Positions 6,408 through 54,048 are shown, counted from the first letter of the stretch. The stretch: 64,000 nt of DNA from a virus (IMGVR_UViG_3300045988_144812:96001-160000), one strand, 5' to 3'. The notes: generated from the letters alone by a model not told the origin. Numbers and translations are program-made.

Positions 6408-7175
6408 ATGGAATTAGGTGAAAAAACAAAACCAATGAAGTTCTCTGTATTTAATCAGACCCCTAATGACGCTACTAAAGAACAAATGTTCTTAGGCCAG
6501 TCTATTAACTTACAGCGATACGATAAGTCTAAATACCAGACTTATAATGATTTGTCAGAAAAACAAAAATCATTCTTCTGGCGACCTGAAGAAGTAGACT
6601 TGTCTAAAGACCGTATCGATTTTGAAGGTTTACCAGAAAATGAGAAACACATTTTTCTACGTAATCTGGATTATCAATCACTTTTGGATTCGATTCAAGG
6701 AAGAAGTCCGGCTATTGCATTTCTTCCTCTAATTTCTATTCCTGAATTAGAGAACTGGACAATTGCTTGGGATTTCTTTGAATCAATTCACTCTTACTCT
6801 TATACGTATATCATGCGTAATGTATTAATTGATCCTAGTGAAGAGTTTGATAATATTGTAGTAAATGAAGAAATTAAGAAACGAGCAAGAGCGATTTCTC
6901 AATACTACGATGACTTGATTATGTATAGCCAATATTATAATCTTTTTGGAGAAGGAGTTTTTGAAGTTAATAAACAAGCAAAAGATTATAAAATGTATTT
7001 TCATCATCGTATTGAGATTAGCAAACGAGAACTGATGAAAAAGCTTTATCTTTGTATGTTCGTAGTGAATGTACTTGAAGCCATTCGTTTTTATGTATCG
7101 TTTGCATGTAGTTTTAGTTTTGCTGAACGTAAACTCATGGAAGGTAATGCCAAGATCATTAAACTTATTGCCCGT
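6408..7175 (+). CDS. nrdB: ribonucleotide reductase class Ia beta subunit, exon 1
   Basis: From ATG 6408 (aaaaggagtaaaaaaATG) the product is colinear with E. coli NrdB ([47 protein letters not shown]). Similarity stops after ...LIAR at 7175. The track's 6351 GTG start and its tail KLRCGFYQ* are artefacts. Confidence 0.9.
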
Positions 7176-7481
7176 AAACTTCGTTGCGGCTTCTACCAGT
7201 GATGGTAGTCGAATAACTCTGTTAAACGGGGAAACTCTAATATAGACAATCCCGTAGTAAAGACGTTTAAATTATATTAGTATAATTTAAACTGACAAAC
7301 TCTAACGACTATCGAAATCCTAATTATTAGAGAGAGTAGAGTAGTGGACAATCGTTTAGTTCGCCAAACGCAGAGGGTCTGTATTAATTACAGATCATGA
7401 TATAGTCTGACCCCAGTAGTGATATTGGGCGGGTGTCTTAAGCACACCGGCTACGATTAACGACCGTAGTGGACAGCTTCG
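7176..7481 (+). ncRNA. group I self-splicing intron (T4 td-like IA2 type, ORF-less) in nrdB
   Basis: 306-nt insert. The exon ends in U (cgt|) and the insert ends in G (...cttcg|gat). A P1 can form (CCGU|AA with UUGCGG). Core strings ttaaacggggaaactctaatatagacaatcccgt, ctaacgactatcg, gatatagtctg and gattaacgac match my recollection of the T4 td intron core. No ORF inside. Confidence 0.85.
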
Positions 7482-7904
7482 GATGAAGCACTTCATTTAA
7501 CTACCACTCAACACATTATTAACACACTAGCTTCTGGTGCTGAAGGTGAAGAATGGAAACAGATTGCTGAAGAAACTAAAGAAGAATGTATTAATATCTT
7601 TAAAGAAGCAGCTCAACAAGAAAAAGATTGGGCTAAGTATTTATTTAAAGATGGCAGTATGATTGGCTTGAATGAAACTATTCTTTGTCAATATGTCGAA
7701 TACATTACCAATCATCGCATGAAGGCGGTAGGATTAGATCCTATATTCCCAGATGCTAACCATAATCCAATTCCTTGGATTAATGCTTGGTTAACTTCTG
7801 ATAATGTACAAGTCGCACCTCAAGAAGTGGAGATTTCATCTTATCTCGTTAGCCAAGTAGACAGCAATGTTAGTAAAGATGATCTTGGTGGTATTGAACT
7901 TTAA
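7482..7904 (+). CDS. nrdB: ribonucleotide reductase class Ia beta subunit, exon 2
   Basis: Resumes exactly with the iron-ligand motif [11 protein letters not shown], then ...[20 protein letters not shown]...[10 protein letters not shown]...[13 protein letters not shown]. Same frame as the track ORF 7659..7904. Confidence 0.9.
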
Positions 7905-11779: not shown

Positions 11780-12778
11780 ATGGAATTGTACAACCCTGAA
11801 ATCGAACTGTTGGGTGTAGAAATTGATATTACTGGTGCGTATTCAGAATTAGATAAATTACTGAAAACTGTTCTCGGACCAGTCATTAAGAATTTTGAAT
11901 TGGAATCTACAGATGATAAATATATCTGTAATATTGAAACAACAGATGGAAAGATTCTAATCTACGATCTGGATAAAGAAGGAACTAACTTATCTGAAGT
12001 TAATATATTGCACATAATCGCATTTAATTATTTCAAAGAAAAACGAATGACTGATAACAGTGCTCTTTGTCGATTAATTCAGAAACAATGTAAAGAATTG
12101 TTTGGTGATAAACATTCTGAAATGGTTTATCGAATTGAACATTTGACAGATAAAGTAGTTCTTTATCTGGCTGTATCTAATCTGAATGCTTACCCTAAAG
12201 AGAAAATCAAATCTAATATCCAAAACGATACTCAGTCATCTCCTAACTACACTCCTATCGCTAATCTCGTTGGATTAGGTCCTAGTGCTAAAGGATTGGT
12301 TTCTGCACTTAGTTGTGTTAATTGGAAAATCGAAGAGGAAGTACTCAGATTCGAAGCGATCAGTGTATCGAATTTTTATGTAAAATTTGATCCAGCATTT
12401 GGTAATTTTGGATTCATGATTAGACAGAATAGTGTTGAAGAAAGAAATGCTTTAAGTGAATTAGCTGAATTGCCATTATTCTATCCTAAGAATTCTTATT
12501 CTTACTTATTCGATAAAGAGAATCCAATTATCGGAGCCATAAACAATATTCCAGTTATTGAAACAAAAGACAGAACCATCTTTATTGACGGTTCTTGTGT
12601 TGTTAAGAGTATTGAAGATAGTCTCTTTACAAAATCTAAATTGATTTGTGGTTCTGTAGAAACTATTTTCCGTATTCCTCGTATTGATTTAGTTAATCTT
12701 ATCTCTATTGCTAAGCACAATGCTAAACAATATACTGTCAATTCAAGTAAATTCTCTTTAGAGAATTTTGATCATTAA
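11780..12778 (+). CDS. hypothetical protein
   Basis: 332-aa ORF with RBS aaggaaattttaaaATG. Confidence 0.7.
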   Translation: MELYNPEIELLGVEIDITGAYSELDKLLKTVLGPVIKNFELESTDDKYICNIETTDGKILIYDLDKEGTNLSEVNILHIIAFNYFKEKRMTDNSALCRLIQKQCKELFGDKHSEMVYRIEHLTDKVVLYLAVSNLNAYPKEKIKSNIQNDTQSSPNYTPIANLVGLGPSAKGLVSALSCVNWKIEEEVLRFEAISVSNFYVKFDPAFGNFGFMIRQNSVEERNALSELAELPLFYPKNSYSYLFDKENPIIGAINNIPVIETKDRTIFIDGSCVVKSIEDSLFTKSKLICGSVETIFRIPRIDLVNLISIAKHNAKQYTVNSSKFSLENFDH

Positions 12779-12790
12779 ACTTTAATAAAC

Positions 12791-12821
12791 TAATACTAGA
12801 GGGGCAATCCCTCTAGTATTA
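12791..12821 (+). terminator. hairpin (CTCTAG variant), weak T tract
   Basis: taatactagaggg-gcaat-ccctctagtatta. Confidence 0.5.
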
Positions 12822-12843
12822 GTAAAAGATAAGGATATTAAAA

Positions 12844-13047
12844 ATGAAAATGCTGGCTAAACGTATTAAATTCCATAAGAGAAAATATCGTTTCGTTAGA
12901 TTTAGTAGCGGTGAATATCTTGTAGGTAAGCTTAAACGATATAAGAATCGTAAGAAGAAACAAAAATTAGACATTTATCTTCGACACATGGAGATTAAAA
13001 TGATAAAATTTATAGAGGAAAATAAAGACGATTTATTTTCTAACTAA
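12844..13047 (+). CDS. hypothetical very basic small protein
   Basis: 67-aa ORF with RBS aaggatattaaaaATG. Lys/Arg-rich (KRIKFHKRKYRF..., KRYKNRKKKQK). Confidence 0.5.
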   Translation: MKMLAKRIKFHKRKYRFVRFSSGEYLVGKLKRYKNRKKKQKLDIYLRHMEIKMIKFIEENKDDLFSN

Positions 13048-13055
13048 ATTTAAAA

Positions 13056-13072
13056 CTAACTTTATAAAGGAA
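13056..13072 (+). promoter_or_regulatory. class-II box
   Basis: ctaactttataaaggaa, 6 nt before ATG 13079. Confidence 0.5.
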
Positions 13073-13078
13073 TTGTGA

Positions 13079-13486
13079 ATGAGTCCATCTAATGTCGATT
13101 CAGAAATGGATCAAAAGTTCTACGATGAATTAACAAAAAGTATTGAGTCTTTCTTAAAGATGAATGATTCCAAATGGAATAAACAATACTTTGTTTACCG
13201 AGAATACGAAGGTGATAAAGAAACAAACTTAACAAAACTCATGACTTACAGCATTGATGTATATGCTGATCGAGAAACATGGATCAATTTTTATAACTTA
13301 ATGTCATTTTGGTTTGCTGGCTTAAGTGTTAGTAAAAAGAAAGATCATTACTTTAATCAATGTGTAATCAGTAATGCATACTCTAGAATAGATCGAACAG
13401 TCGTTTATTTAGGTTATGTAGACGAAATTGGCATCACCTATAAATACAACATGGCCATTCACCACAATGAAAGAAAGGAAGATTAA
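13079..13486 (+). CDS. hypothetical protein
   Basis: 135-aa ORF preceded by the ctaactttataaaggaa box. Confidence 0.65.
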   Translation: MSPSNVDSEMDQKFYDELTKSIESFLKMNDSKWNKQYFVYREYEGDKETNLTKLMTYSIDVYADRETWINFYNLMSFWFAGLSVSKKKDHYFNQCVISNAYSRIDRTVVYLGYVDEIGITYKYNMAIHHNERKED

Positions 13487-13488
13487 AA

Positions 13489-13701
13489 ATGAAGACGATC
13501 CAAAAGAAAAGAAAGAAAGCAGTTAATAGAAAATATACAGCTCCTAAATCATTATCAGGAATGGATAATCCTCTTGGTGAAACATATGGAAAACCATTTG
13601 ATGGTAGCTTTAATCAGAAACCTACCAAGCATGAAATTGAAGAGGCATTCGATGATCTTGGTATAGCTCTTGCAAAAAGGTTTAGAATTCCTTTAGATTA
13701 A
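13489..13701 (+). CDS. hypothetical small protein
   Basis: 70-aa ORF with RBS aaggaagattaaaaATG, 2 nt after the previous stop. Confidence 0.55.
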   Translation: MKTIQKKRKKAVNRKYTAPKSLSGMDNPLGETYGKPFDGSFNQKPTKHEIEEAFDDLGIALAKRFRIPLD

Positions 13702-13765: not shown

Positions 13766-15571
13766 TTAGATTTTACAAGCACCACCAGCACAACCATCAT
13801 CCAGACTATCTTGAGTATCATTAGATCCATCGTTTGTATGGTGATAGTACAATGTTTTAATACCATACTTATACGCAATCAACAATTCCTTCAATAGTTC
13901 TTTCATAGGTACTTTGCCATTAGGATAATTGATAGGATTATAACGAGTATTCGTAGAAATAGATTGATCTACAAATTTTTGCATAATCGCTACTAATTTT
14001 AACATTCCGATATTGTTACTGTCGTACCACAAGTATTCGTAACTAGAATCTAAATTCTTATAATCAGGAACGACTTGTTTTAAAATACCATCTTTAGAAG
14101 CTTTAATCGTAATAGGACCACGAGGTAAATCAATACCATTAGTGGCATTACTTACTTGACTACTGCTTTCAGAAGGCATTAGACTAGTCAGCGTAGCATT
14201 ACGTAAACCATATTGGACAATATCCTTACGCAAGCTTTCCCAATCTAATTTATATTCAAACGAAGCATATTCGTCGATAGACTTTTTATAAGTGTCTATT
14301 GGTAAAACGCCTTTAGAATATTTAGTGTTTTCAAACGCACCACACTTACCTTTTTCTTTGGCTAATTGTACTGATGATTTTAATGCATAGTACTGAATAG
14401 CCTCGAATAATTCATGAGTCATCTGATGACCACTGCTATTACTATACCGAGCACCATTCTTAGCTAAGTAATAAGCGTAGTTAATCACACCAATACCTAA
14501 TGGACGATACTTATCTACAGAATTACGAGCTGCTTTAACAGGATAGTTTTGATAGTCTAATACAGAATCAAGAGCACGTACAATTAAGTCCATAGACTCT
14601 TCAATCTCTTCAAGATTATCTTTATCCACTGTACCCAGATTCAAAGCACCTAGAGTGCACAAAGCAATTTCACCTTCTTCATCAGAAATATTGTTTAATG
14701 GCTTGATAGGTAAACCAATTTCCATGCAGTTACCAGTCATGATGTTGTTAAATACAACAGAGTTATTTTTTGGTTCAAATACACAGAATGTATCGTGTTT
14801 ACCATCTAACTTTGTAACTGATTTTACAATAGACTGGTCTACTTTAATAATACCTAATTGAGTCGATGGGGTATTCCATTTAGACAGTTTCACACCATGA
14901 ACTAATTCTTTAGTAGGTATACGAGTACCATCTTCAAGAATCCATTTATGTTCACTAGTACAATCTAAATAACGACCATCTACTAATTCTACACGATATA
15001 AATCTTGATCAGTATTTGTTTTAACAAACTCAATACCTTCAGACCATTCAAAACCATTCCAGATAGTGAATTTCTCACCAATATAATCGCCAATCTTAAC
15101 CATGCCTTTATCAGTTAATACTTCGGTATCTCCTGAAACACACAAGTTACTGGTATAAATAGTTGCTTCTTTTTCAATAAATGAAGAATGGGTATTCATG
15201 TGGTCAGTATTCATGATGTAAATACGACCAGTATTAGCACGCTCTGACATCAACAATGTAAACAATTCAGTAGCTTTAATAGTCTTCTTAGGAATAAGAG
15301 GATTTGCTTCAGCTTCTAAATAAAGTTTTTCAAATAACTCTTGGTCGTTAAAGTAAGCATCGTATAAACCCTCTACAGAATGAGGTGACAATAAAGTAAT
15401 GTCTTTATCTTCAATCAGACGCTGATACATTAATTTATTAATCTGCACACCGTAATCCAATTGGCGAATACGGTTGTCTTCTACACCACGGTTATTTTTT
15501 AATACCAGTAATGATTCTACTTCTAAATGCCAGATAGGGTAAAATAAAGTTGCAGCACCACCACGAATCCC
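13766..15571 (-). CDS. nrdA: ribonucleotide reductase class Ia alpha subunit, exon 2 (contains mini-intein)
   Basis: Starts GIRGGAATLFYPIWHLEVESLLVLKNNRG (E. coli GVRGGAATLFYPMWHLEVESLLVLKNNRG) and ends DGCAGGACKI. The TTG 'start' at 15574 in the track is an artefact. Confidence 0.9.
   Translation of the reverse strand, partial: GIRGGAATLFYPIWHLEVESLLVLKNNRGVEDNRIRQLDYGVQINKLMYQRLIEDKDITLLSPHSVEGLYDAYFNDQELFEKLYLEAEANPLIPKKTIKATELFTLLMSERANTGRIYIMNTDHMNTHSSFIEKEATIYTSNLCVSGDTEVLTDKGMVKIGDYIGEKFTIWNGFEWSEGIEFVKTNTDQDLYRVELVDGRYLDCTSEHKWILEDGTRIPTKELVHGVKLSKWNTPSTQLGIIKVDQSIVKSVTKLDGKHDTFCVFEPKNNSVVFNNIMTGNCMEIGLPIKPLNNISDEEGEIALCTLGALNLGTVDKDNLEEIEESMDLIVRALDSVLDYQNYPVKAARNSVDKYRPLGIGVINYAYYLAKNGARYSNSSGHQMTHELFEAIQYYALKSSVQLAKEKGKCGAFENTKYSKGVLPIDTYKKSIDEYASFEYKLDWESLRKDIVQYGLRNATLTSLMPSESSSQVSNATNGIDLPRGPITIKASKDGILKQVVPDYKNLDSSYEYLWYDSNNIGMLKLVAIMQKFVDQSISTNTRYNPINYPNGKVPMKELLKELLIAYKYGIKTLYYHHTNDGSNDTQDSLDDGCAGGACKI
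14729..15142 (-). mobile_element. mini-intein (138 aa, no endonuclease domain) in NrdA at the SNL|C thiyl-radical cysteine site
   Basis: Insert CVSGDTEVLT...TSEH(TxxH)...VVFNNIMTGN lies between ...IYTSNL and CMEIGLPIKPLN (E. coli SNLCLEIALPTKPLN). Has Cys1, terminal Asn and +1 Cys. The penultimate residue is Gly, not His. Confidence 0.85.
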
Positions 15572-15929
15572 CAAATACCTTCAATACGAGTCGTTAATTC
15601 GTATTCTACCAATTAAGATAGCTCTATGTCACCATAGACGTTGAGACTATATCTTCTTCTCCAGCATTACCTGGTAAGATTCCAAACATCAGGAAACTAC
15701 ATAGAGGATTACATTAATCCACTGTAGTAGTCGCTCTATTTCCCCAAACTCCGTTACAGAGACCTCACTTGAGTGGTACGTCTTTCGACTAGTCGTTGAA
15801 CCTTCCCTAGATGTATTTATATACAATTAGGTATTGGCTGCTGATTGTCTATACTTTAATATAGATTTCCCAGCAATTAAGAGCGATATTTTTAACTCTG
15901 TATTTCTACAGAGCTGGGCAGGATTGTTT
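15572..15929 (-). ncRNA. group I self-splicing intron (T4 td-like IA2 type, ORF-less) in nrdA
   Basis: 358 nt between ...TCC CAG GGT| and |GGG ATT CGT. Removing it restores SCSQG-GIRGG (E. coli SCSQGGVRGG). The exon ends in U and the insert ends in G. P1 is GGGU|A with UGCCC. Core strings caacgactagtcgaaag, gatatagtctcaacgtctatggtgacatagagc and gaattaacgactcg resemble the td intron. Confidence 0.85.
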
Positions 15930-18080
15930 ACCCTGGGAACATGATTTAACTGCAGCTTGAAACATTTTCCAAAATGGAATAACGCCAGTATGGATAGCTT
16001 CACCTTTACGAATTTCACTACCTAATGCACGAATACGACCACCATTAATACCAATTCCAGCACGTTGAGAAATATACTTAACAATAGAGGAAGTAGCTGC
16101 ATTAATACTATCCAGACTATCGTCACAATCAATTACAGTGCAGTTATGTACTCCGATACTACCGGCAGTAAATGAATGTTCATTTTCTACTTCGATATCG
16201 TAAACCATCGGGTTAGTCTCATTAAGTAAATGAATGGCTAAGGTAACTTTAGAGAAACAATAACCATCTTTAAAGACGACATTATTTCTTATATACTTAG
16301 AATGTTCTTCAGATCCAGGAACTGTAACCATTACTGAACTTTCTAAATAATTCGCGTATCTTGCTTCATCATTACCTAAATATTCTTTTATAAGACTTAC
16401 ATTAGAACCGATTGAGAAGAATATTAAGTAACTTACCTCTCTAGTAATAACCTCAGAAATTGCTCCATTTGCTCTTACAACAGGGACTTGTTTACCAGGT
16501 TCTCTGAATGAGACACTGGGTTTTAATCCCAAACGTAGAGATATTTCAGTAAGTTGTTTAGATAGGAATTTATTACTTAGGCTTATAGTGATTCCTCTAC
16601 CGTCTAAAAAACCATCGGTTTCAATAACACCTAGCAACAAACTTAATTGTTTGTCGTGTTCCGAATTCATTACTTCTTTACTGATTTTCTTCTTATTGAA
16701 ACCAGTACCGAGATGATAAAGAATGAATTCTTTAAATACGTAGGAGTGTACTGATACTTTGCAACTATGGTCGTTGTCGTTATAGTTAACAGAACAATTT
16801 AAACCGAAGTTATCTTTTATAGTGTTAACTATAAATTCGATCTTATGCTTATCTTTAGCATTCATGGTAAACGCCACACAATGCACATTTTTATCACAAT
16901 GACCGTTTCCAATATACATACCCATTAATCTAAATATATCGTTATTTAAAACAATATCATTTTTAACAGGTTTTATCTTATCATCGTACTCACCCGACCT
17001 AACACGTACGTCTGATGTGGTTTTACGAATATAGCCATCATCACAAAGAGTATATCTTGGATTGTTTACATAATCGATCATTCTAATATTAGTGAATGGA
17101 ATGATTTCATTATTAAAAGGAATAGAAACATAATCACCTATTTTAATATCTTTAGCTTCCACCCATTTAGGCTCTGACTCACCTTTAGGCAAGGTCCAAA
17201 CAAGATGGTCTTCTGTAGACAAGAAATCATTTCGATGACTTAATGTCGATTTTAACTTGATGAAATTTTCACCAGTATATTGTCGGCATGTAAGTGTTTT
17301 TACAGGAGAGAACGACCCTTCCTTAGTTAAAACCATATCTCCAACATTTACATCTTCGATATATTTGTAACCTTCGCTAGTAAGTACTTGCTGGTCAGCA
17401 GGGAAACAACTACTAAACTGACGAGTAGGTGTACGTACACCTGCCATGATTGGAGTAGGCAATGAAATCTTAAACAATGACAAAGCATCGTAGAATTTCT
17501 TAATATATCCTAAACGAGTTTCTTTAGGGTAGTCAGCAAACAAACAAGTAGGAATTAAAACAAAAGCTACTTGAGGAGATTCGTACACTCGTTTAGTCAC
17601 TCGGTTTTGCACCAAGTATTTACTTTCCATTTGTTTAATACCGGCATAAGCGAAATTTAAATCTCGGGTATGGTCTACAAAGGACTCAATGGCATTAATT
17701 TCTTCCTCGGTGTATTTCTCTAAAATCTCTTTATCGTAAACACCTTTTTCAATCATTGACTGAATATGTTTATATAATCGAGTAGGTACGTATTCACCAT
17801 AAGCAATCTTACGAATATGGAACAGTGCTAAACGCGCAGCCATGTACTGATAATCGGGATATTCTGTAGAGATTAAATCAGCAGCAGATTTTACCAATGT
17901 TTCATGGATATCGGTAGTTGAGATACCATTATAGAATTGAATATGACTATTGATTTCTACTTGGGAACTAGAAACATCTAAACATTCAGCAGCCCATTCT
18001 ACTACACGGTGAATTTTAGCAATATCCAATGGTTCAAAATGGCCATCGCGTTTCTTTACTTTAATTTTTTGTTCAGTCAT
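15930..18080 (-). CDS. nrdA: ribonucleotide reductase class Ia alpha subunit, exon 1 (contains LAGLIDADG intein)
   Basis: ATP-cone VKKRDGHFEPLDIAKIHRVVEWAAE, ...ISLPTPIMAGVRTPTRQFSS | intein | CTVIDCDDSLDSINAATSSIVKYISQRAGIGINGGRIRALGS...AVKSCSQG. The track tail KQSCPAL* is intron read-through. Confidence 0.9.
16143..17408 (-). mobile_element. full-length intein (422 aa) with LAGLIDADG homing-endonuclease domain in NrdA
   Basis: Begins CFPADQQVLTSEGY directly after RQFSS. Has TxxH block (STEDH), two dodecapeptide blocks (FRLMGMYIGNGH, LLLGVIETDGFLD) and block G VYDIEVENEHSFTAGSIGVHN|C. Inserted before the Cys aligned with E. coli C225. Confidence 0.88.
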
Positions 18081-24454: not shown

Positions 24455-25789
24455 TTACTTGAACTGTTGTCTAGGATAGTTATAACCAAGGTATAGATAT
24501 TCAGTATATCGACCTTTCCATTTTTTATATAATTCAGATTTAACAAATGAAACATAGTCGATAATAAGATAATGTTCAGTAACATAGAAACGATTAACTG
24601 CTACATTTCTTAAATTATCTCTAGATAAGTGTTTTAATTCATCTATTAGAGAAAGTTTAATTCTGGAATCAGGAAGCAGTATAATAGGAAATCCACTACC
24701 ATCTTTATTTAGAATAACATAAGTTCTACTACTCCAAGTAGTTGCTAATTCGTATACTGGATCTAACTTATCAGGCGTTTTCCATTCTGAAAAATCATCA
24801 ATTCTTTTAATCCGTTGCAGATTACTCAGAATAGGTTGATTTGTCTTCTCTAACATCTTCTTCAGACTAGATAAAGTAATCCCAGTTTCTTTATAGTAAT
24901 CAGTAAGACTACGATAAGTCTTCTCGATGAATTGATTGGTCTTATAATCAATTACAACGATAGGATGTACAATACCACCTCCTTTTTTAACATAGATAGT
25001 GGGTTTCTCAAACTCAGGATCCTCTAGATACTTTACCTGAGTATCGTCAGGCCACATAATCTTCATGTAGTTAGGATCATCTAACCTCTGCCCAATAGTA
25101 GTCTCGTGATAACCCATATATCTAGAAGCATCTATCATGGAATCAAAACTTCTTACTACTCCTCCTTCATTATGGAATTTAATCGATACTTTCTTAGTAG
25201 TCGTAATGAGATTATTTCTTACGGCATGGTGGACGTTTTCAGAATTGGTGATAACCTCTAGATTACACAAATCATTATTCTGTTTATTCCCATCAATGTG
25301 ATTAACAACATATCTTACTCCGTCAATACTATCAAGACCATTATGTTTAGTAACCTTAGCATAATCTTCAGGTCTAAATGTAGCTAGTAATAGGTGATGC
25401 ATTTTCTTAGTCTTTTTCTCCCCGTTATCACCTATTAAAGACAGTACCGTATAGCCATTTCTACCCACAACAGTTCCCATCAATTTATGGTATTTCTTAC
25501 CAAATATCCTACCATCTTTACTAATAAGATAACCAGTATATCCAGGTATTTCTTTAAATTCACTAAAGTCTAGATTCTGATACTCTAATTCTTTAAACAA
25601 TTTAGGAACAGTAATCCATTCTCTTGTATCTGGATCTAAATAGTTATTTCCAGTTATAAACTTATTTCTTATTGTAGAATAAACTTGTTTAGTTTTAGGA
25701 TTTAGCCAAACATAACGGCATCTCTTACTATTTATAAATCCCAATGATTCTAAATCTTCAACAGTATAAATTTTCTTAATAGGTTTCAT
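24455..25789 (-). CDS. free-standing HNH homing endonuclease (444 aa)
   Basis: HNH core VVNHIDGNKQNNDLCNLEVITNSENVHHAV. NUMOD4-like IPGYTGYLISKDGRIFGK upstream and a long C-terminal extension (probably DNA-binding). Sits between two terminators and outside any intron. Confidence 0.85.
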   Translation of the reverse strand: MKPIKKIYTVEDLESLGFINSKRCRYVWLNPKTKQVYSTIRNKFITGNNYLDPDTREWITVPKLFKELEYQNLDFSEFKEIPGYTGYLISKDGRIFGKKYHKLMGTVVGRNGYTVLSLIGDNGEKKTKKMHHLLLATFRPEDYAKVTKHNGLDSIDGVRYVVNHIDGNKQNNDLCNLEVITNSENVHHAVRNNLITTTKKVSIKFHNEGGVVRSFDSMIDASRYMGYHETTIGQRLDDPNYMKIMWPDDTQVKYLEDPEFEKPTIYVKKGGGIVHPIVVIDYKTNQFIEKTYRSLTDYYKETGITLSSLKKMLEKTNQPILSNLQRIKRIDDFSEWKTPDKLDPVYELATTWSSRTYVILNKDGSGFPIILLPDSRIKLSLIDELKHLSRDNLRNVAVNRFYVTEHYLIIDYVSFVKSELYKKWKGRYTEYLYLGYNYPRQQFK

Positions 25790-25962: not shown

Positions 25963-26838
25963 TCATTTGAACTGTTGGCGCGAAATGTTTCGGACAGTTT
26001 CCCCAAATGACATCCTAGACGCGGCTACCATGCTATCGAGACCAATGTTGGAATGTATAGCTTCTTCATGATACGCATTCGCGTTGATTAATTTAATACT
26101 GTCAAGGAATTTTTGAGCAAAGAAGTCAACACCAGGACCGTAGTGATAAATACCAGTAAATTCAATTTGAATTTCACGAGTTTCAGAAGGGTTTTCTTTA
26201 TCGTGTTTGGCTTCATTATCACCAGAAGATTTAGGCCACATGTTGATACCGATCCATGATTGAACCACTTTAGTCATGGTTGCGTTAGGTTCGATAAACA
26301 ACATAGACATGGAATACATGTCAGGCATTGCATCGTAATCTTGAGTACCAGCTACTGTTGAAATGGAAGCATATTTAGTTTCCATATTCATCATCAGCAT
26401 TTCGATCCAGTAACGCATGTAGCGACCGATAGCCAAACCTGGACGTTCCCAGAAAGACATAGAAACGTTCAATGGATCTTCAGTCACGTTAGTGAATACT
26501 TCGTATTTTTGACCTGAACCACCAAATGCTTGGTTTTGGTCAGTGGCTACAGTGAGCTTGTGTCCCAAACCAGTAATACGGTGACGAATGGTTTCTACCA
26601 GGCTACGCAAGATAGCGATATGGACTTTACCATCAGGAAGAAGTTTAAAGCCAAGAGGAGCTTCCAAAAGAAAACTAATCAGCGGACGAGAAGTGTATGG
26701 AGTGTTATTAATCCAAGCAGCCCATTGTTTAGCATAACCGAAGTTACCACCCTCGATAAGACCTACAACAGGAGCCTGAATACCATCAGCAAAACCGCCC
26801 GTATTTTTAGACATAAAAACGGGTTCAATACGTGCCAT
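25963..26838 (-). CDS. putative tail tube protein
   Basis: 291-aa ORF immediately downstream of the sheath gene on the same strand, with strongly biased codon usage. Called from position and size only (phiKZ has sheath-then-tube order, as I recall). Confidence 0.5.
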   Translation of the reverse strand: MARIEPVFMSKNTGGFADGIQAPVVGLIEGGNFGYAKQWAAWINNTPYTSRPLISFLLEAPLGFKLLPDGKVHIAILRSLVETIRHRITGLGHKLTVATDQNQAFGGSGQKYEVFTNVTEDPLNVSMSFWERPGLAIGRYMRYWIEMLMMNMETKYASISTVAGTQDYDAMPDMYSMSMLFIEPNATMTKVVQSWIGINMWPKSSGDNEAKHDKENPSETREIQIEFTGIYHYGPGVDFFAQKFLDSIKLINANAYHEEAIHSNIGLDSMVAASRMSFGETVRNISRQQFK

Positions 26839-26873
26839 TTTTATTTTTACCTTTTAAAATTTTGAAATAAAAT

Positions 26874-26895
26874 AGGGGTTAAATAAATAACCCCT
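26874..26895 (-). terminator. intergenic hairpin/attenuator between the sheath and tube genes
   Basis: On the minus strand: aggggtta-tttatt-taacccct followed by attttatttc. Confidence 0.45.
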
Positions 26896-26905
26896 AGTTA
26901 TAGAC

Positions 26906-29116
26906 TTAGGCGCTAATGCCGCTGAAATTTTCAGGCTTATCTTCGCGACGATAGTTTTCACTGTAGAACGTTTGAACAGTTTTGATGTTGTCGCCGTATA
27001 CACGTGCAACAAAGTGCCAAGACCAAGAACGTTCGGTATCGATAGCAGTGAAGTACAACTCACCTTGAACCTCAATAGTACCACCAAATTTATTGTCTTT
27101 AATTTGGGAGTAGAACCAAGATTCAGCTTCTTGTTTCAGACGCAGTTGTGACCAGTCTTTACCGGAGAAGCGACGACGCAATTCAGCACCAATTTTGTTC
27201 AACTCAACATGGAACAACATGATACGAGCATTCATCAAGGTAGAAGAGTAATCTTCGTAAATGGTACGAATCATCGGGAAGTAGAAGCGACCAGATTCGC
27301 TACGTTCTACCCACATACCGCCAGCAGCCCACGCTTCGTTACGTTGGATGTAAGGTACCCATGGGTTAGAGATATCAGTCAGATAACGCAGATAGTTGTT
27401 ATCACCTTCGGTAGGATCCCAACGAGCATCGGCACGACCAATTTTAGCACCCCAGTATTTAGTAAACAAACGACAGATCTCGTAAGATACTGGAACACGT
27501 TTTTCGTAACTAGATACAGAAGAACGGAAACGACCACTACCACGGATAACCATAGCACGGAATGTTTCAGTACCAAATACTGCAGAATCAGGAGCCAGTT
27601 TCAAACGGTTACGGATGGCTGCCAAACGAGCAATCTCTTCAGCAGCAGTAATGATACCTTCACCAGATACATGAGTGGTAGCACACACCCAACGGTCTTT
27701 ACGGTTAACCAGGTACTTGTTCAGATTGAATTTAGTTTCAATTGGATAACCAGTATCGTAGAAGACAGAATCGTTATAAGTAGTGTCATCCATGTAACGG
27801 CTGTTAGCGTCAGCAAACTCATCGAGCATTGCATCAACAGCAGCAGCAAACAACTCATCAGACATCTCACCATCAGTACCGCCAGTAGACCATTGTACTG
27901 AACCTTCACGCAAAGCAGTTACTTCACCTTCAGTAGTAGAGATGTTGTCAGAATTACGGAAAGTTTGGTAAGGACGACCGTCAGAGTGAGTACCAGTAAA
28001 CAAGTTAAACAGATATTTAGAGTCTGCTTTGTTTTCTTCAGTTACAGCAGCAAAGTCACCGTAGTAACGAGTGGTATTTTCCATCTCGCCAGTCTGAGGA
28101 TTCAGAGTCGGAACTTGAGTACCAGATACATCCAATTCTTTTTGCATGAAAAGAGAAAGGATGCTGTCGATGTTTGCTTGGTAAACGTGAATGTTGCTGA
28201 AAGAACCGAAAGTTGCAGGAAGATTAGGTTCGTCAGGACGATTGTTATTGTAATGTTTTACAAAAGTTTCGCCCAAGTAGTAACGAACACCTACTTTAGA
28301 AACAGCACCTGGTTTCAAACAGAAATCGATTTCACGAGCACCTTTAGTTGTAGTTTCTACAACTTTATTGCTGGTAGCGTTAGGTTTAGTAAATACTTGA
28401 AGACGGAATGGGTAAGAATTTGTATCGCTAAAAGCGATAGTATTCAAAGGAGCTTGGTCAGTGGTCTTAGGTGCCCAGATGGAAATACCGGTTAAATTAC
28501 CCCAAGCACCAGGAGAGCTGGTTTCGAAGTCAAAGATTGGAAGACGCTTACCAACTACACCATTGACAGCAAAGTCAACTTGATTAGTTGCACCTTTACC
28601 CAAACCAGAACTAGATACAGTTCGGCTAGCCAAAGTAATTTGTTCTGGTTTCAGTTCTTCCAAAACCCAACGGTAAGTAATACCAGGAACTTTACGACCT
28701 GTAGATACTTTCTTACCACGGTCTAAACGGAATTGACCAGAAGCATCACGCTCGTATTCATCTACTTCTACTTCGACGTACTCGATAGACAGACGCATAC
28801 CGGCTTTACGCATAGCGTTTTCAGGAACGATACGTTTAGCGATAATGGTACCACTATCTTGCAACATGCCTTCGATGAAGACAGAAGAGTGGTTGTAGTA
28901 CTTGTGGAGAGGATCCAAAGTCTTGTTACCGAAGAGCTTAATAAATGCTTCACCGTCGACAACTACTTCCTCGGTAGGACCTTTTTCAGCGTAGAATGGG
29001 CAAAAAGCCATATGTGGTGCACGCGGAGTGGCGACAACGGATTGAGGTCTACCGGACATATCCTTAGTACCCAGGTGGAAACTGTGGGGTGTAGGATTAT
29101 TAATGTAGATATCCAT
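26906..29116 (-). CDS. contractile tail sheath protein
   Basis: 736 aa. The N-terminal pattern FCPFYAEKGPTEEVVVDGEAFIKLFG...YNHSSVFIEGMLQDSGTIIAKRIV parallels T4 gp18 AGKFQWGPAFQIKQVTNEVDLVNTFG...YFMSAMNFLQYGNDLRVVRAV. Very strong codon bias. Confidence 0.75.
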   Translation of the reverse strand: MDIYINNPTPHSFHLGTKDMSGRPQSVVATPRAPHMAFCPFYAEKGPTEEVVVDGEAFIKLFGNKTLDPLHKYYNHSSVFIEGMLQDSGTIIAKRIVPENAMRKAGMRLSIEYVEVEVDEYERDASGQFRLDRGKKVSTGRKVPGITYRWVLEELKPEQITLASRTVSSSGLGKGATNQVDFAVNGVVGKRLPIFDFETSSPGAWGNLTGISIWAPKTTDQAPLNTIAFSDTNSYPFRLQVFTKPNATSNKVVETTTKGAREIDFCLKPGAVSKVGVRYYLGETFVKHYNNNRPDEPNLPATFGSFSNIHVYQANIDSILSLFMQKELDVSGTQVPTLNPQTGEMENTTRYYGDFAAVTEENKADSKYLFNLFTGTHSDGRPYQTFRNSDNISTTEGEVTALREGSVQWSTGGTDGEMSDELFAAAVDAMLDEFADANSRYMDDTTYNDSVFYDTGYPIETKFNLNKYLVNRKDRWVCATTHVSGEGIITAAEEIARLAAIRNRLKLAPDSAVFGTETFRAMVIRGSGRFRSSVSSYEKRVPVSYEICRLFTKYWGAKIGRADARWDPTEGDNNYLRYLTDISNPWVPYIQRNEAWAAGGMWVERSESGRFYFPMIRTIYEDYSSTLMNARIMLFHVELNKIGAELRRRFSGKDWSQLRLKQEAESWFYSQIKDNKFGGTIEVQGELYFTAIDTERSWSWHFVARVYGDNIKTVQTFYSENYRREDKPENFSGISA

Positions 29117-47930: not shown

Positions 47931-47983
47931 AATTATCTATGTCCTGCCTATTTTTTGAAAATACAAATATAGGAACGACCCAA

Positions 47984-50194
47984 ATGGACAACATACGTTC
48001 TAAGAACCCTAACGATATATCTGGAATTAATGTAAATCAATACGACCTTAAAGAAAATGTATTCGTATTAAATGCTAATGAATACACCAGGAAGTTAAAT
48101 CCAGTAGTCGATTATGTTGAACAACAAGCAAAATTTCTATCGGTTATGGAAGAGATTCCTTACGAAGATGCCAGAAGTTTTGTAGCGGAAAATATTAAAC
48201 CAGATGGTTTATTTCCGATTAAAAATCCTAAGATACATTGTGTTCGTAAAGATGAAAATGGCGATCGGTACGAAGATGTAGACAGTACTTTGTTACAGTA
48301 CTTAAAAGAAACATTTGTTAGTGAAGACATCATGGCTGCTACGTTTACAACGTTTATGCCACACAAACGTAAGATGTCTTACATTTCTCAATACGTGGAA
48401 GAAGCATTTCCTAAACGTAAAGCTTTAAAGAAACGACAGTTTCAAATGAAGCAGATGGGTAACTCAGTAGGTGAAGCATTTGCCAATAATGGTCAGAATA
48501 ACATTAAGCGTTCTATTAACTCCATTTCTGGAGCCTCATCATTACCATCAACACCTATCTATTGTATCTCGATGCATCCTGTATTGACTTCTAACTGTAG
48601 GATGACTTCTGGATATGCTAATGCAAATAATGAAAAACTGTTAGGTGGTAATCGACATTATCATTCAGCAGATGTTACGATCAATAATCTAGTAGCACTA
48701 ACGACCAATATTGATTTGGAACAAGTAAAAGCAGTTATTGATAAATATAATCTTCATGTCCCTAATTCAGAAGAGTTGTTCGAGTACATTTTAGAAAGTA
48801 CGCGTAACTATTGGAGGTGGCCAGAGAAAGAACAAATCATTAGAGAGTTTATTACCAAATGTACTCGTGAAGAAAGAGCTTGCATTGCTTACATTTACGA
48901 CTTACATGCAATGAAACGATTTAATGAAGAATTCATGTATTCTTTTATTGGTAAGCTTTCAGAAAAAGTAGATCCGATTCCTGGATTAGATCTTGAAGAA
49001 GCTGGACGTATTTTTAACAGTGCTTTAGATGAAATTAAGATTCACGCCATTCAAGTACACTCTGATAAAGTTATTGGTGAGCGAGAATCTGAATATGTTA
49101 AGACAGATACAGTGATTACAATGGCTTCACAAGTCATTAATACTTATCATGTTTTCCAAGAATATAAAGATTACATTCAGACATTCTTAAGATCTCGTCA
49201 TTTACCATCTTCATTAGCTATGCTTCCTGCTATTTTACGTAAAGTAGTATTGATGTCAGATACTGACTCGTCTATCTTTACAACAGAAGCTTGGACAAAA
49301 TGGTACACTAATAAGTCTAGAGGTTATAAAGATAAACAATTATCTACAGGTGTGTATTCAGCCATGGTAATGTTGTCTTCATTAACTTTAAAACATTTAT
49401 TAGCCACGATGTCTGCAAACCTAGGTGTACCTGAAAAGTATATCTGGGGTATTGCGATGAAAAATGAATTTAACTTTGTTATTTTCGTTAATTTAAATCG
49501 TACCAAACATTATATCGCTACAATCGCTATTCAAGAAGGTAATGTTTATTCTGAATTAGATATTGAGAAAAAAGGTGTCCATATGAGGAATTCAAATAGT
49601 CCTCAAGACATCATCAAACATGCTGAAAAGATTATGGAAAAACTATATAATTTCCATAGCGATGAAAAGATTAAAGTATTGGATGTTTTAAAAGAAGTAG
49701 CAGATGCTGAAAGGAAAATTATTCATTCCCTAGAGAAAGGTGAACCGATTTATTATCGCTCTACCCAGATCAAAGAAAAAGAATCGTATAAGAAAGAAGA
49801 AGATGCTTCTCCTTTTGCTAATTATACATTCTGGAATGAGACTTTTGGTAAACACTATGGCATGACCGATCCTCCGCCATATTCTTCTTTCAATGTTAAG
49901 TTAGACATCAATAACAAAACAGAAATGGTACAGTGGTTAGATTCTTTTGAAAATAAAGAACTGGCGAATGATATTCGTGAGAATCTTAAGAAGAGAAAGA
50001 AAGATTATTTAGGTACAATTAACGTACCTTATGCAGTCTTTACATCACAACCTATTCCAAAAGAAATCATTCCTGTTGTGGCTAAACGCGATATTGTGAT
50101 TAACTTGTGTGCGCCTTATTATATTGCGTTAGAGGCAGTAGGATTCTTCTTCTTTGATAAATTTAATAGTAAGTTAATTTCTGATTACTATTAA
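47984..50194 (+). CDS. family-B-like DNA polymerase, polymerase (palm/fingers/thumb) domain only
   Basis: Motif-B-like GQNNIKRSINSISGA (RQxxxKxxxNSxYG), motif-C-like VLMSDTDSSIFT (YGDTDS) and a possible degenerate motif A, TFTTFMPH. No exonuclease motifs. Start chosen at ATG 47984 (taggaacgacccaaATG); the track start at 47939 is possible. Confidence 0.5.
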   Translation: MDNIRSKNPNDISGINVNQYDLKENVFVLNANEYTRKLNPVVDYVEQQAKFLSVMEEIPYEDARSFVAENIKPDGLFPIKNPKIHCVRKDENGDRYEDVDSTLLQYLKETFVSEDIMAATFTTFMPHKRKMSYISQYVEEAFPKRKALKKRQFQMKQMGNSVGEAFANNGQNNIKRSINSISGASSLPSTPIYCISMHPVLTSNCRMTSGYANANNEKLLGGNRHYHSADVTINNLVALTTNIDLEQVKAVIDKYNLHVPNSEELFEYILESTRNYWRWPEKEQIIREFITKCTREERACIAYIYDLHAMKRFNEEFMYSFIGKLSEKVDPIPGLDLEEAGRIFNSALDEIKIHAIQVHSDKVIGERESEYVKTDTVITMASQVINTYHVFQEYKDYIQTFLRSRHLPSSLAMLPAILRKVVLMSDTDSSIFTTEAWTKWYTNKSRGYKDKQLSTGVYSAMVMLSSLTLKHLLATMSANLGVPEKYIWGIAMKNEFNFVIFVNLNRTKHYIATIAIQEGNVYSELDIEKKGVHMRNSNSPQDIIKHAEKIMEKLYNFHSDEKIKVLDVLKEVADAERKIIHSLEKGEPIYYRSTQIKEKESYKKEEDASPFANYTFWNETFGKHYGMTDPPPYSSFNVKLDINNKTEMVQWLDSFENKELANDIRENLKKRKKDYLGTINVPYAVFTSQPIPKEIIPVVAKRDIVINLCAPYYIALEAVGFFFFDKFNSKLISDYY

Positions 50195-51985: not shown

Positions 51986-53899
51986 ATGGGTATCGAAATC
52001 GATAACAAAAACTTGGGCAATGCCCGTCCATTCACTTTCACTGGTAACGGTGGTTTCGCTGGTTTCAACGTCATCAACAATGACTTGATGAGTTTCGAGA
52101 AAACTCTGAAAGAAGTCATCGAATCTCGTTTCACTGTAAACGGTATCGACATTGGTATTATTCCACTCGACCGTAAAAACCATCGTCTGCTTCCACTGGA
52201 CGTAATGCTGATTACTGTTCGTGATGAAAATGATTCCGAAAAATCTAAAAACCTGCGTGGTGTTTATGCTGTAGCTATCTGTAAATCTACAGACACTCTG
52301 CGTGAACAACAAGTGGATCTGGGTGGTCGTAAATTCAGCATCGACATCTTGCCTAGCCAAATGTTCAATGCGCCTGAACTGATCAACTTGTTTGTTACTG
52401 TCGTAAAAGACAAGTACAAAGAAGATACTGTATACTGCGGTGGTTCTACTTTGTTCGTAGACGAAGTAAATCTGAAAGACCAAAGCATCGTACTGCGTTC
52501 TTTGATCAACTACCTGATGGCATGTGTTACTGGTGCGAGCTATGAGAAAAATCGTCGTGATCGCAAACTGAGCGACATGAACTTTGCAGACCATGATTCA
52601 TCCGAGATCCTGTATTGCGAACGCAAACTGAATACGGCTCCAGTATTTGATGAAGCAAACCAACCTATCCGTGCTGACTTCATCCACACCGTAACTGGTC
52701 GTGTAGAAAACAACAATGCCTCTACTTCATTCCTGGGTGATGGCGGTGTTGCTCGTGAAGTATCTAGCGTGACTGGCTATATCGACATCTTGCCGGTATC
52801 TCCTAATGCAAATGCTAATGTAAGCAACATGTGCCCATGGTCTTCCACAGGCTTTGCTTATGGTCAAGCTGGTTCAGTAACTGGTCAACAAACTCCAGCA
52901 GAAGCAACTCGTACTTACGTAACTAACGTGGTATTTACTTCTATTAACCCTGCTGAATACCAAACCATGGGTAACATCCTGTTCGGTCTGGTAGCTGGTG
53001 TGGTTGCTTCTTGGGACAACTACTGGTGGGTAATGACTGCGCTGAATCCAAAACAACAAGCGCCTAATAGCCTGCACTCTGTAGCTGGTTTGGGTTACGA
53101 CATTTCTCAAATGTTGCGTCTGCCTAAATTTGAACCAATCCCTGTTGACAGCCCTGAATTTAACGATGCGGCATGGATCAGTGTATTGAACACTTACTTC
53201 CGTCCAGATGTAGTATTCTCTCTGGAAGTTGGTCTGGGTTCTGCTGGCGAATGGAAATACAACGCCATTCTGCAAGCTGCTATCGAGTCTTATGAAGATG
53301 CTGTGAAACCAGGTTCCTTCAACGGCTTCCTGATTGATTTGGCTACTTTGTTGACCAATGGTGTATTTACTGCAGAATACCAAAAACTGGGTGGTGATGG
53401 TCGTGTGGTAACTACTTTGCGTGATCGTCAAACTCTGGTAGGTTCTTACTACAATGACACCCTGAAAACTATTCGTTCTGTTCAAGACTTCGACCGTCGT
53501 CTGTTGCTGAACCAAATCAACGGTTCTGTAGAAAACATGGCGATTATCGCTGACTGGAACTACGCTTCTGTAGATCCATCTTTGAACACTCTGCAACGTT
53601 TGGGTATCCAACAAGACATCATCAAACGTCAAGCACCTTCTGCTAAAGTCACTGGCTATGGTGTACGTGTTGACTTTGATTCTCGTTTTGTACGTGCTCT
53701 GGTAAATTCAATGCGTATTGCTGGTCTGGTCCTGATTAACAGCAATACTGTTACTCCAGTTAACCAAGTACAATTTGCTACCCACATTAACAATGCATTG
53801 GTCAGCAATATCGATGGTCACTTGAGCTATGGTCGTACAACTACTGGTACCAGTGGTATGGGTGCGTTTAACTTCAGTCAACATCGCCCACACTACTAA
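51986..53899 (+). CDS. putative phage-nucleus shell protein (chimallin/ChmA-like); alternative: another very abundant protein
   Basis: 637 aa with the strongest codon bias in the window (it leaves >200-aa stop-free antisense frames). Has its own 345-nt leader with a promoter-like box and its own strong terminator. It directly precedes the beta-prime-N RNAP subunit, as phiKZ gp54 precedes gp55. Called from synteny, size and expression signature, not from sequence identity. Confidence 0.5.
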   Translation: MGIEIDNKNLGNARPFTFTGNGGFAGFNVINNDLMSFEKTLKEVIESRFTVNGIDIGIIPLDRKNHRLLPLDVMLITVRDENDSEKSKNLRGVYAVAICKSTDTLREQQVDLGGRKFSIDILPSQMFNAPELINLFVTVVKDKYKEDTVYCGGSTLFVDEVNLKDQSIVLRSLINYLMACVTGASYEKNRRDRKLSDMNFADHDSSEILYCERKLNTAPVFDEANQPIRADFIHTVTGRVENNNASTSFLGDGGVAREVSSVTGYIDILPVSPNANANVSNMCPWSSTGFAYGQAGSVTGQQTPAEATRTYVTNVVFTSINPAEYQTMGNILFGLVAGVVASWDNYWWVMTALNPKQQAPNSLHSVAGLGYDISQMLRLPKFEPIPVDSPEFNDAAWISVLNTYFRPDVVFSLEVGLGSAGEWKYNAILQAAIESYEDAVKPGSFNGFLIDLATLLTNGVFTAEYQKLGGDGRVVTTLRDRQTLVGSYYNDTLKTIRSVQDFDRRLLLNQINGSVENMAIIADWNYASVDPSLNTLQRLGIQQDIIKRQAPSAKVTGYGVRVDFDSRFVRALVNSMRIAGLVLINSNTVTPVNQVQFATHINNALVSNIDGHLSYGRTTTGTSGMGAFNFSQHRPHY

Positions 53900-53924
53900 T
53901 CCTAATGTAGTTCGGTAATACTAA

Positions 53925-53952
53925 TCCCTGACTCTTTAACTAGAGTCAGGGG
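53925..53952 (+). terminator. terminator after the chimallin-like gene
   Basis: tccctgactct-ttaact-agagtcagggg followed by ttttgtatt. Confidence 0.8.
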
Positions 53953-54048
53953 TTTTGTATTATGTTCATCTAAATTTATTTTTTAGAAGTCAAATATTTT
54001 TTGATGATCTATTTTTGAACGAACTAACTACATGAGGAATGTTTATAA

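Follow-up and report, generated by a model that had tools for sequence, protein, structure and literature searches.

How can the catalytic subunit of a ribonucleotide reductase (RNR) be made from a gene that lies in two open reading frames (ORFs) and carries three insertions? The question is raised by nrdA on the minus strand of IMGVR_UViG_3300045988_144812:96001-160000, a stretch of viral DNA of 64,000 nucleotides (nt) that was analysed as a whole (the window), and for which an earlier reading, made without database searches (the sequence-only reading), had proposed two inteins and one group I intron in this gene. We identified ORFs at 15906..18080 (ORF1, 724 amino acids, aa) and 13766..15574 (ORF2, 602 aa), and three in-frame inserts, of 1266 nt (16143-17408), 358 nt (15572-15929) and 414 nt (14729-15142), all of them exactly where the sequence-only reading had placed them. 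Translation of the minus strand after excision of 16143-17408, 15572-15929 and 14729-15142 gives a conceptual spliced NrdA of 758 aa and 85.8 kDa (not 757 aa, as previously counted), which is encoded in four segments (here and below, ↓ marks a junction or insertion site):

17409..18080, minus strand: nrdA coding segment 1, residues 1-224, ending ...RTPTRQFSS; Pfam ATP-cone and Ribonuc_red_lgN; gapless alignment
15930..16142, minus strand: nrdA coding segment 2, residues 225-295, CTVIDCDD...AVKSCSQG; ends at U15930, the 5' splice site
15143..15571, minus strand: nrdA coding segment 3, residues 296-438, GIRGGAATLFYP...IYTSNL
13766..14728, minus strand: nrdA coding segment 4, residues 439-758 and stop codon, CMEIGLP...YYHHT...DGCAGGACKI; Pfam Ribonuc_red_lgC

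We consider it highly probable (roughly 0.9) that this is one functional nrdA of an uncultured phiKZ-like jumbo phage, carrying three parasites that remove themselves. Comparison of residues 4-758 of the spliced product to known NrdA proteins gave 1147 bits for N. gonorrhoeae NrdA (PDB 7mdi) and 1119 bits for E. coli R1 (2r1r), with all three junctions free of gaps in both cases, which bears out the colinearity with class Ia NrdA that had been claimed for the gene freed of its inserts. When aligned without gaps to 1rlr, the product has the equivalent of C225 directly after the position of intein 1 (the 1266-nt insert) and that of C439 directly after the position of the mini-intein (the 414-nt insert), and the exon junction maps to G295↓G296; N437, E441 and C462 are conserved, and the YY pair and the C-terminal Cys pair are kept. 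By Pfam, ORF1 contains the ATP-cone and the all-alpha domain, and the match to the RNR barrel is divided between the two ORFs, its first 74 positions falling in ORF1 and positions 74-523 in ORF2. By these matches, the gene product is the alpha subunit of a class Ia RNR (NrdA). The precursor with both inteins comprises 1318 codons, with zero frameshifts or stop codons, and the ratio of nonsynonymous to synonymous substitution rates (dN/dS) in the exteins, measured against three relatives, is 0.02-0.10; judged by this divergence, nrdA is under purifying selection. The absence of defects from 1318 codons, the low extein dN/dS and the intact catalytic residues thus support a working gene.

In the pathway that we propose, a single pre-mRNA would be transcribed from nrdA, and the 358-nt intron would fold in it with P1 formed by GGGU and GCCC and P10 formed by GGGAUU and AAUCCU. 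A guanosine-initiated, two-step transesterification would excise the intron, ending with G15572, and join codon G295 to G296. Translation of the spliced mRNA would give the 1318-aa precursor, in which each intein would follow the class 1 pathway, with an N-S acyl shift at Cys1 and trans-thioesterification to C225 or C439, after which the terminal Asn would cyclise and an S-N shift would follow. The end products would be the 85.8-kDa NrdA and free inteins of 47.8 and 15.6 kDa.

The 358-nt insert had been read as a group I intron without an ORF, and this assignment holds. Rfam RF00028 (gathering score, 50 bits) matched 15622..15991(-) with 85.8 bits (E = 1.9e-20). The Rfam alignment is unusable for the intron ends, displacing P1-P2 into the exon and stopping about 50 nt short at the 3' end; the ends at 15929 and 15572 were set from P1, P10 and the reading frame. 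Exon 1 ends ...CAG GGU at U15930, and its GGGU (15933-15930) pairs in P1 with intron GCCC (15919-15916), leaving the U15930.G15919 wobble at the 5' splice site; this pairing is invariant across 5 sequences. P10 comprises 6 base pairs between intron AAUCCU (15925-15920), a guide lying directly 5' of the P1 guide in the intron, and GGGAUU (15571-15566) at the start of exon 2. The last intron base is G15572, and the protein across the junction reads SCSQG↓GIRGG, for which the E. coli counterpart is SCSQGGVRGG. The elements of the intron are as follows:

15572..15929, minus strand: ORF-less group I intron, 358 nt (RF00028, P1/P10, covariation)
15920-15925, minus strand: P10 guide AAUCCU
15916-15919, minus strand: P1 guide GCCC
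15896-15913, minus strand: P2
15880-15886 with 15731-15737, minus strand: P3
15790-15794 with 15645-15649, minus strand: P7
15789-15800, minus strand: J6/7-P7 core uucaacgacuag
15780-15789, minus strand: P7.1
15697-15727, minus strand: P8
15623-15638, minus strand: P9
15606-15621, minus strand: P9.1
15584-15604, minus strand: P9.2

For a covariation test, the window intron and four related copies (5 sequences) were compared over 14 helices that had been written out (P1, P10, P2, P3, P7, P7.1, part of P7.2, P8 and extensions, P9, P9.1 and P9.2). Of the cells in 71 pairs, 99.2% hold standard pairs, and 14 pairs are altered on both sides. None of 500 shuffles equalled the observed pairing or compensatory values, and control alignments in which the 3' partners were slid by 1-3 columns were 34-46% paired, with 0-1 compensatory pairs. 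P3 and P7 are invariant among the five copies. Two P10 pairs covary, the exon reading GCAAUU and the guide AACUGU in two of the relatives (L003 and L006), and this joint change of guide and exon 2 fixes the 3' splice site. Between P7 and P3' the intron has extra helices (P7.1/P7.2), which are typical of subgroup IA2. Stops close all three frames of the 358 nt, no endonuclease remnant was found in them, and the intron is therefore ORF-less. From its sequence and by analogy, we infer that the intron is self-splicing. Among the core strings picked out by the sequence-only reading, 'gatatagtct' and 'atggtgacat' do belong to the P7 3' strand and the P9 hairpin, whereas 'ttaacgac' (15594-15601) lies in the P9.2 loop and not in the J6/7-P7 core. 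The loop of the P9.2 hairpin reads AUUAACGAC in both introns of the window, at 15584-15604 (-) in nrdA and at 7451-7471 (+) in nrdB; it resembles the J6/7-P7 core UCAACGACUA, and (A/G)CGAC is kept in this loop in the relatives.

The 414-nt insert, which had been called a mini-intein in front of C439, has the following parts:

14729..15142, minus strand: mini-intein, 138 aa, 15.6 kDa, without endonuclease domain; CVSGDTEVL...IMTGN, then the thiyl-radical Cys
within 14942-14968, minus strand: mini-intein block B (TSEH)
14729-14797, minus strand: mini-intein blocks F/G

It matched NCBIfam TIGR01445 with 35.2 bits (cut-off 24.5); taken alone, it scored 14.6 bits with Pfam Intein_splicing, which is sub-threshold, and a Pfam search of the intact ORF2 found no Hint domain, the RNR barrel match spanning the mini-intein. 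Sequence matches in the PDB were DnaE and gp41-1 inteins. An AlphaFold2 model built with 25 aligned family members had a predicted local distance difference test (pLDDT) value of 94.7 and a predicted template modelling (pTM) score of 0.87, and the best 50 PDB matches in Foldseek were all inteins, bacterial intein-like domains or Hedgehog HINT domains (template modelling scores ≤0.81). On this model, we are confident in predicting a HINT fold. An exhaustive HMMER search with the mini-intein retrieved 1601 cluster representatives at E ≤0.001, to none of which it is more than about 50% identical; a word-indexed search of 5.8 billion proteins with the same query gave one weak match only. Among 76 family representatives located at xN[L/P]↓CxE, the penultimate residue is Gly in 58 and His in 1, and the sequence ends in GN in 31 and in GQ in 27. 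By this count a Gly-Asn end is normal in the family of inteins at the thiyl-radical site of RNR, and the penultimate Gly is not the departure from the usual that the sequence-only reading took it to be. Both inteins of the window keep Cys1, TxxH and the terminal Asn, and each is followed by an intact Cys.

The strongest evidence for the mini-intein is its presence or absence among close metagenomic relatives. In L001 (252 kb) and L004 (255 kb), the second nrdA ORF has 464 aa (602 minus 138), with YTSNL↓CMEI uninterrupted and the exteins flanking the SNL↓C site 93-98% identical to those of the window; the insert is thus exactly absent. In L003, a homologous intein of 239 aa (12961-13677) occupies SNL↓C, ends in Ser-Gln and is longer by about 101 residues, which lie between its splicing halves. 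No Pfam family matched this 101-aa segment, which may represent an endonuclease or a DNA-binding domain that is degenerate or has gone unrecognised. The mini-intein of the window has lost an endonuclease domain or never had one. Over the 464 shared ORF2 residues, the window and L001 show about 10 differences, of which 3 (I/V, G/A and I/T; 14700-15170 (-)) are located within 8 residues of the mini-intein site, and at these three the window has the state of L004. The differences near the site may be a short co-conversion tract from acquisition of the intein, or chance.

The 1266-nt insert in front of C225 is an intein of the LAGLIDADG type, as had been proposed:

16143..17408, minus strand: intein 1, 422 aa, 47.8 kDa, class 1 with LAGLIDADG domain; CFPADQ...GVHN, then Cys
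within 17196-17222, minus strand: intein 1 block B (TEDH)
16899-16928, minus strand: intein 1 LAGLIDADG motif 1, LMGMYIGNGH
16611-16640, minus strand: intein 1 LAGLIDADG motif 2, LLLGVIETDG
16143-16205, minus strand: intein 1 blocks F/G, VYDIEVENEHSF/GSIGVHN

Matches above cut-off came from two Pfam families, Hint (30.0-31.9 bits against 29.7) and Hom_end (26.3 bits against 21.1), and from NCBIfam intein_Cterm (20.7 bits against 15.6); Pfam Intein_splicing scored 31.8 bits, slightly under its cut-off of 35.8. The splicing residues are C1, T65-E-D-H68 and ...GVHN422, with Cys as the next residue. The site is gap-free in E. coli NrdA, in N. gonorrhoeae NrdA and in many phage NrdAs, and in Tenacibaculum phage PTm1 the same position is occupied by an intein; an intein-less target in nrdA would read ...CAGTTTAGTAGT↓TGCACTGTA.... 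Four metagenomic relatives also carry intein 1 there, with 82-93% identity; no empty site was found in the close clade, all five members of which (the window and four relatives) are occupied. The TxxH block and the two LAGLIDADG blocks that had been read in intein 1 are present, except that motif 1 lacks its catalytic acidic residue: all five clade members read IGNG, with Asn, at the position that we take to be the counterpart of Asp218 of PI-SceI, compared to AEG, with Glu, in PTm1, whereas motif 2 keeps its Asp. The dN/dS of intein 1 is 0.09-0.2, and that of its endonuclease domain is 0.07-0.25, values by which the endonuclease domain is under purifying selection. Synonymous divergence between the window and L004 is 0.19 in intein 1 and 0.69-1.15 in the flanking exteins; because the former is far under the latter, the comparison suggests that intein 1 was recently exchanged between lineages. 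Its endonuclease may have decayed to an inactive remnant, may act as a nickase, or may have been moved by recombination.

Comparison of the nrdA introns of these relatives shows a further polymorphism. The L004 intron (12152-13268) is 1117 nt long, and its P6 loop holds an ORF (12343-13035) for a 230-aa homing endonuclease of the HNH_3/NUMOD4 type, whereas the versions in the window, L001, L003 and L006 are ORF-less. The P5-P6 module of the window and L001 is unlike that of L003, L004 and L006. The alleles are combined as follows:

Window: intein 1 present; nrdA intron 358 nt, ORF-less; 138-aa mini-intein at SNL↓C; nrdB with a 306-nt intron
L001: intein 1 present; nrdA intron 358 nt, ORF-less; SNL↓C empty; nrdB intact (396 aa)
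L004: intein 1 present; nrdA intron 1117 nt, with the 230-aa HNH/NUMOD4 gene; SNL↓C empty
L003: intein 1 present; nrdA intron 380 nt, ORF-less; 239-aa intein at SNL↓C; nrdB split by an intron

The three elements have reached different points in the homing cycle. This allelic series among close relatives is more useful than the gene itself: with SNL↓C empty, filled by a mini-intein or filled by a 239-aa intein, the nrdA intron ORF-less or HNH-containing, and the nrdB intron present or absent, it supplies donor and recipient alleles for studies of homing, endonuclease loss and co-conversion. The gene, for its part, provides a compact, Gly-Asn-ended intein of 138 aa with its native Cys nucleophile. 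When the entire region was compared by Megablast to 50,697 phage records, no close relative was found, the only matches being 159 nt at 77% and 37 nt of intron core; the collection therefore does not include the source phage.

The identity, boundaries, fold and family of the three elements, and their presence/absence polymorphism, are established from sequence and comparison. Several points weigh against a single nrdA that is restored by splicing. RNA and protein splicing of all three elements in this phage is predicted from sequence; the first codon of ORF2 is an in-frame TTG that follows GAAGGU, an arrangement compatible with independent translation; the mini-intein is without the penultimate His that aids Asn cyclisation in many inteins; and the Asn in the metal-binding position of motif 1 may leave the endonuclease of intein 1 inactive or a nickase, although this last point bears on mobility and not on splicing. 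The TTG at 15574 that opens ORF2, with GAAGGU before it, could signify a genes-in-pieces NrdA, in which no RNA is spliced and two polypeptides assemble non-covalently into the active enzyme, as in Aeromonas phage Aeh1 (PMC3045599, PMC2677866), where a mobile element likewise leaves nrdA as two ORFs. The element of Aeh1, however, is a free-standing HNH gene without a ribozyme, and two polypeptides are made, whereas in the window a complete ribozyme would restore a single ORF. A two-polypeptide enzyme is extremely unlikely here because the 358 nt form a complete, covarying ribozyme whose P1, P10 and terminal G give an exact junction that restores the frame, and because the ribosome-binding-like bases are not conserved, the purine-rich stretch reading GAAGAU in relatives. 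Moreover, the TTG is the conserved 3' end of the intron, the intron of Pectobacterium phage vB_PatM_CB7 at the same junction splices (PMC7344957), the break would hit SCSQG↓GIRGG, which is continuous in E. coli R1, and assembly domains are absent.

The missing penultimate His also enters into the possibility that the gene is decaying, with at least one element dead for splicing (the His-less mini-intein, for example), no NrdA made and the host RNR used instead. Neither the mini-intein nor the intron has an endonuclease, and some of the intein-bearing nrdA genes of phages are regarded as degenerating (PMC3653736). Such decay is nevertheless very unlikely for a gene with 1318 codons free of frameshifts and stops, with the extein dN/dS given above and with all catalytic and radical-transfer residues kept, the more so as both inteins retain their splicing residues and the GN end recurs in 31/76 family members, in otherwise intact RNR genes. 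The probability that the 414-nt mini-intein is an assembly chimera is close to vanishing. It is missing in L001 and L004, with flanks 93-98% identical, and the word-indexed search found its single weak match; yet its insertion at the canonical SNL↓C site keeps the frame exactly, and it has the full set of intein blocks, with a homologous allele at the same site in L003 and same-site homologues in many cultured phages. Beyond selfish persistence, the inteins could be redox-sensitive maturation switches that gate RNR post-translationally: they adjoin the redox-active C225 and the radical-bearing C439, and might, for example, be trapped by a disulfide between Cys1 and Cys+1. Separately, the intron allele may be immune to an HNH endonuclease of the L004 type, an advantage that would act in co-infection and for which the intron endonuclease of PhiPA3 is the reported parallel, mobile introns being already known to matter in competition between such jumbo phages (PMC11620839). 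We regard these roles as improbable, and prefer a functional nrdA in which the three elements are self-removing parasites.

All three elements belong to known families and are located at sites known from other phages; it is their three-way combination that is new. The closest parallel is nrdA of Pectobacterium phage vB_PatM_CB7 (KY514263, CB7_203/202/201), which is annotated in two parts around an HNH gene. The group I introns of CB7 and the window interrupt nrdA at exactly the same nucleotide position, cag ggt↓gga gta (Q-G↓G-V), exon 1 of CB7 ending ...ACA TCC CAG GGT and exon 2 beginning GGA GTA AGA. The core strings of the two introns are similar, but the CB7 intron carries its HNH endonuclease gene in the P6 region whereas the window intron is ORF-less. 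Splicing of the CB7 nrdA intron was demonstrated by reverse transcription PCR and sequencing (PMC7344957). The second part of CB7 nrdA has an intein of the same family at the same SNL↓C site as the window (KQSNL↓CVAPET...FNGILTGQ↓CMEIALP), with a LAGLIDADG domain that the window's intein lacks; unlike the window, CB7 has no intein before the equivalent of C225. In both phages nrdB is interrupted by an intron as well. CB7 is a 143-kb member of the Vequintavirinae, whereas the window comes from a phiKZ-like jumbo phage.

For intein 1 the parallel is NrdA of PTm1 (AP019524, ORF-048), with an intein at the same site (RTPTRQYAS↓CFPYDQ) that is 38% identical to intein 1 over 295 aa; both are of the LAGLIDADG type, and they differ at the motif 1 catalytic position (Glu in PTm1, Asn in the window). 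The PTm1 NrdA ORF (L011 253-2703) is annotated to end within the intein, and the next nrdA coding sequence begins 548 nt downstream; a further intervening element or a disrupted intein is possible in this stretch. An RNR intein of Aquifex, considered as a precedent for the C225 site, was set aside, as that intein concerns the R2 subunit. The mini-intein is like the family of RNR inteins at the thiyl-radical site, which includes contiguous and split inteins of NrdA and NrdJ, directly N-terminal to the thiyl Cys, and has members in NrdA of Vibrio phage ICP1, Nitrincola phage 1M3-16 and Burkholderia phage SURPRISE13. The family and the window share the N-terminal block CV(S/A)GDT and block G FNGI(L/M)TG(N/Q)↓C, with its penultimate Gly; mini and endonuclease-containing forms both occur, and that of the window is a contiguous mini-intein, not a split one. 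Both inteins do lie directly before catalytic cysteines, as the sequence-only reading had stressed, but this is the rule for RNR and not a special feature, the thiyl-Cys site having been described as the one at which RNR inteins occur most often (Dassa et al. 2009, PMC2677866).

Elsewhere, too, a single RNR catalytic-subunit gene can combine elements that self-splice as RNA with elements that self-splice as protein: nrdE of B. subtilis phage SPbeta has an intron and an intein, and nrdE of Brochothrix phage A9 has three introns and one intein (PMC3653736), while four inteins, along with three introns of group II, are given for the RNR of Trichodesmium (Liu et al. 2003, cited in PMC2874743). These cases differ from the window in RNR class or subclass, in host and partly in insertion site, and the Trichodesmium introns are of group II whereas that of the window is of group I. 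The td, nrdB and nrdD introns of T4 are, like that of the window, phage group I introns in genes of nucleotide metabolism, at a different insertion site. The window thus contributes a clear-cut example of an RNR gene with three self-splicing parasites, from an uncultured phiKZ-like jumbo phage lineage, and leaves knowledge of intron and intein mechanism unchanged.

Other features of the window bear on the source of the gene and on further mobile elements:

6408-7904, plus strand: nrdB, interrupted by a 306-nt ORF-less group I intron at 7176-7481
24455-25789, minus strand: free-standing HNH_3 endonuclease ORF, 444 aa, between the tail tube gene and a 284-aa gene
25963-29116 (minus strand), 47939-50194 (plus strand) and 51986-55557 (plus strand): phiKZ-like marker genes

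The window encodes a sheath protein like phiKZ gp29 (gp29PR-like), a tail tube protein, an NAD-dependent DNA ligase, a divergent family B DNA polymerase and an RNA polymerase beta'-like fragment; a chimallin-family match was weak (23.5 bits, under the 27-bit cut-off). Among cultured jumbo phages, the nearest DNA polymerases, those of Ralstonia and Burkholderia phages, reach no more than about 37% identity to that of the window, and the genome is about 250 kb with 34% G+C. Because of the marker genes and the divergence of the polymerase, the source appears to be an uncultured chimallivirus-like jumbo phage, possibly a nucleus-forming one.

The nrdB intron matched RF00028 with 56.9 bits at 7166-7429 and sits between ...LIAR and DEALH..., with P1 CCGU/GCGG, a U.G pair at U7175, P10 UUCGUU/GAUGAA and terminal G 7481. 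It is present in L003, and nrdB of L001 is uninterrupted (396 aa). On the 3' side of the intron site, the exon of the window is nearer to L003 (77-95%) than to L001 (55-85%), a pattern that looks like a co-conversion tract. HNH_3 ORFs similar in size to that at 24455-25789 were called in L003 and L004, and none between the corresponding genes of L001; this ORF looks like another mobile element that is present in some members of the group and absent from others.

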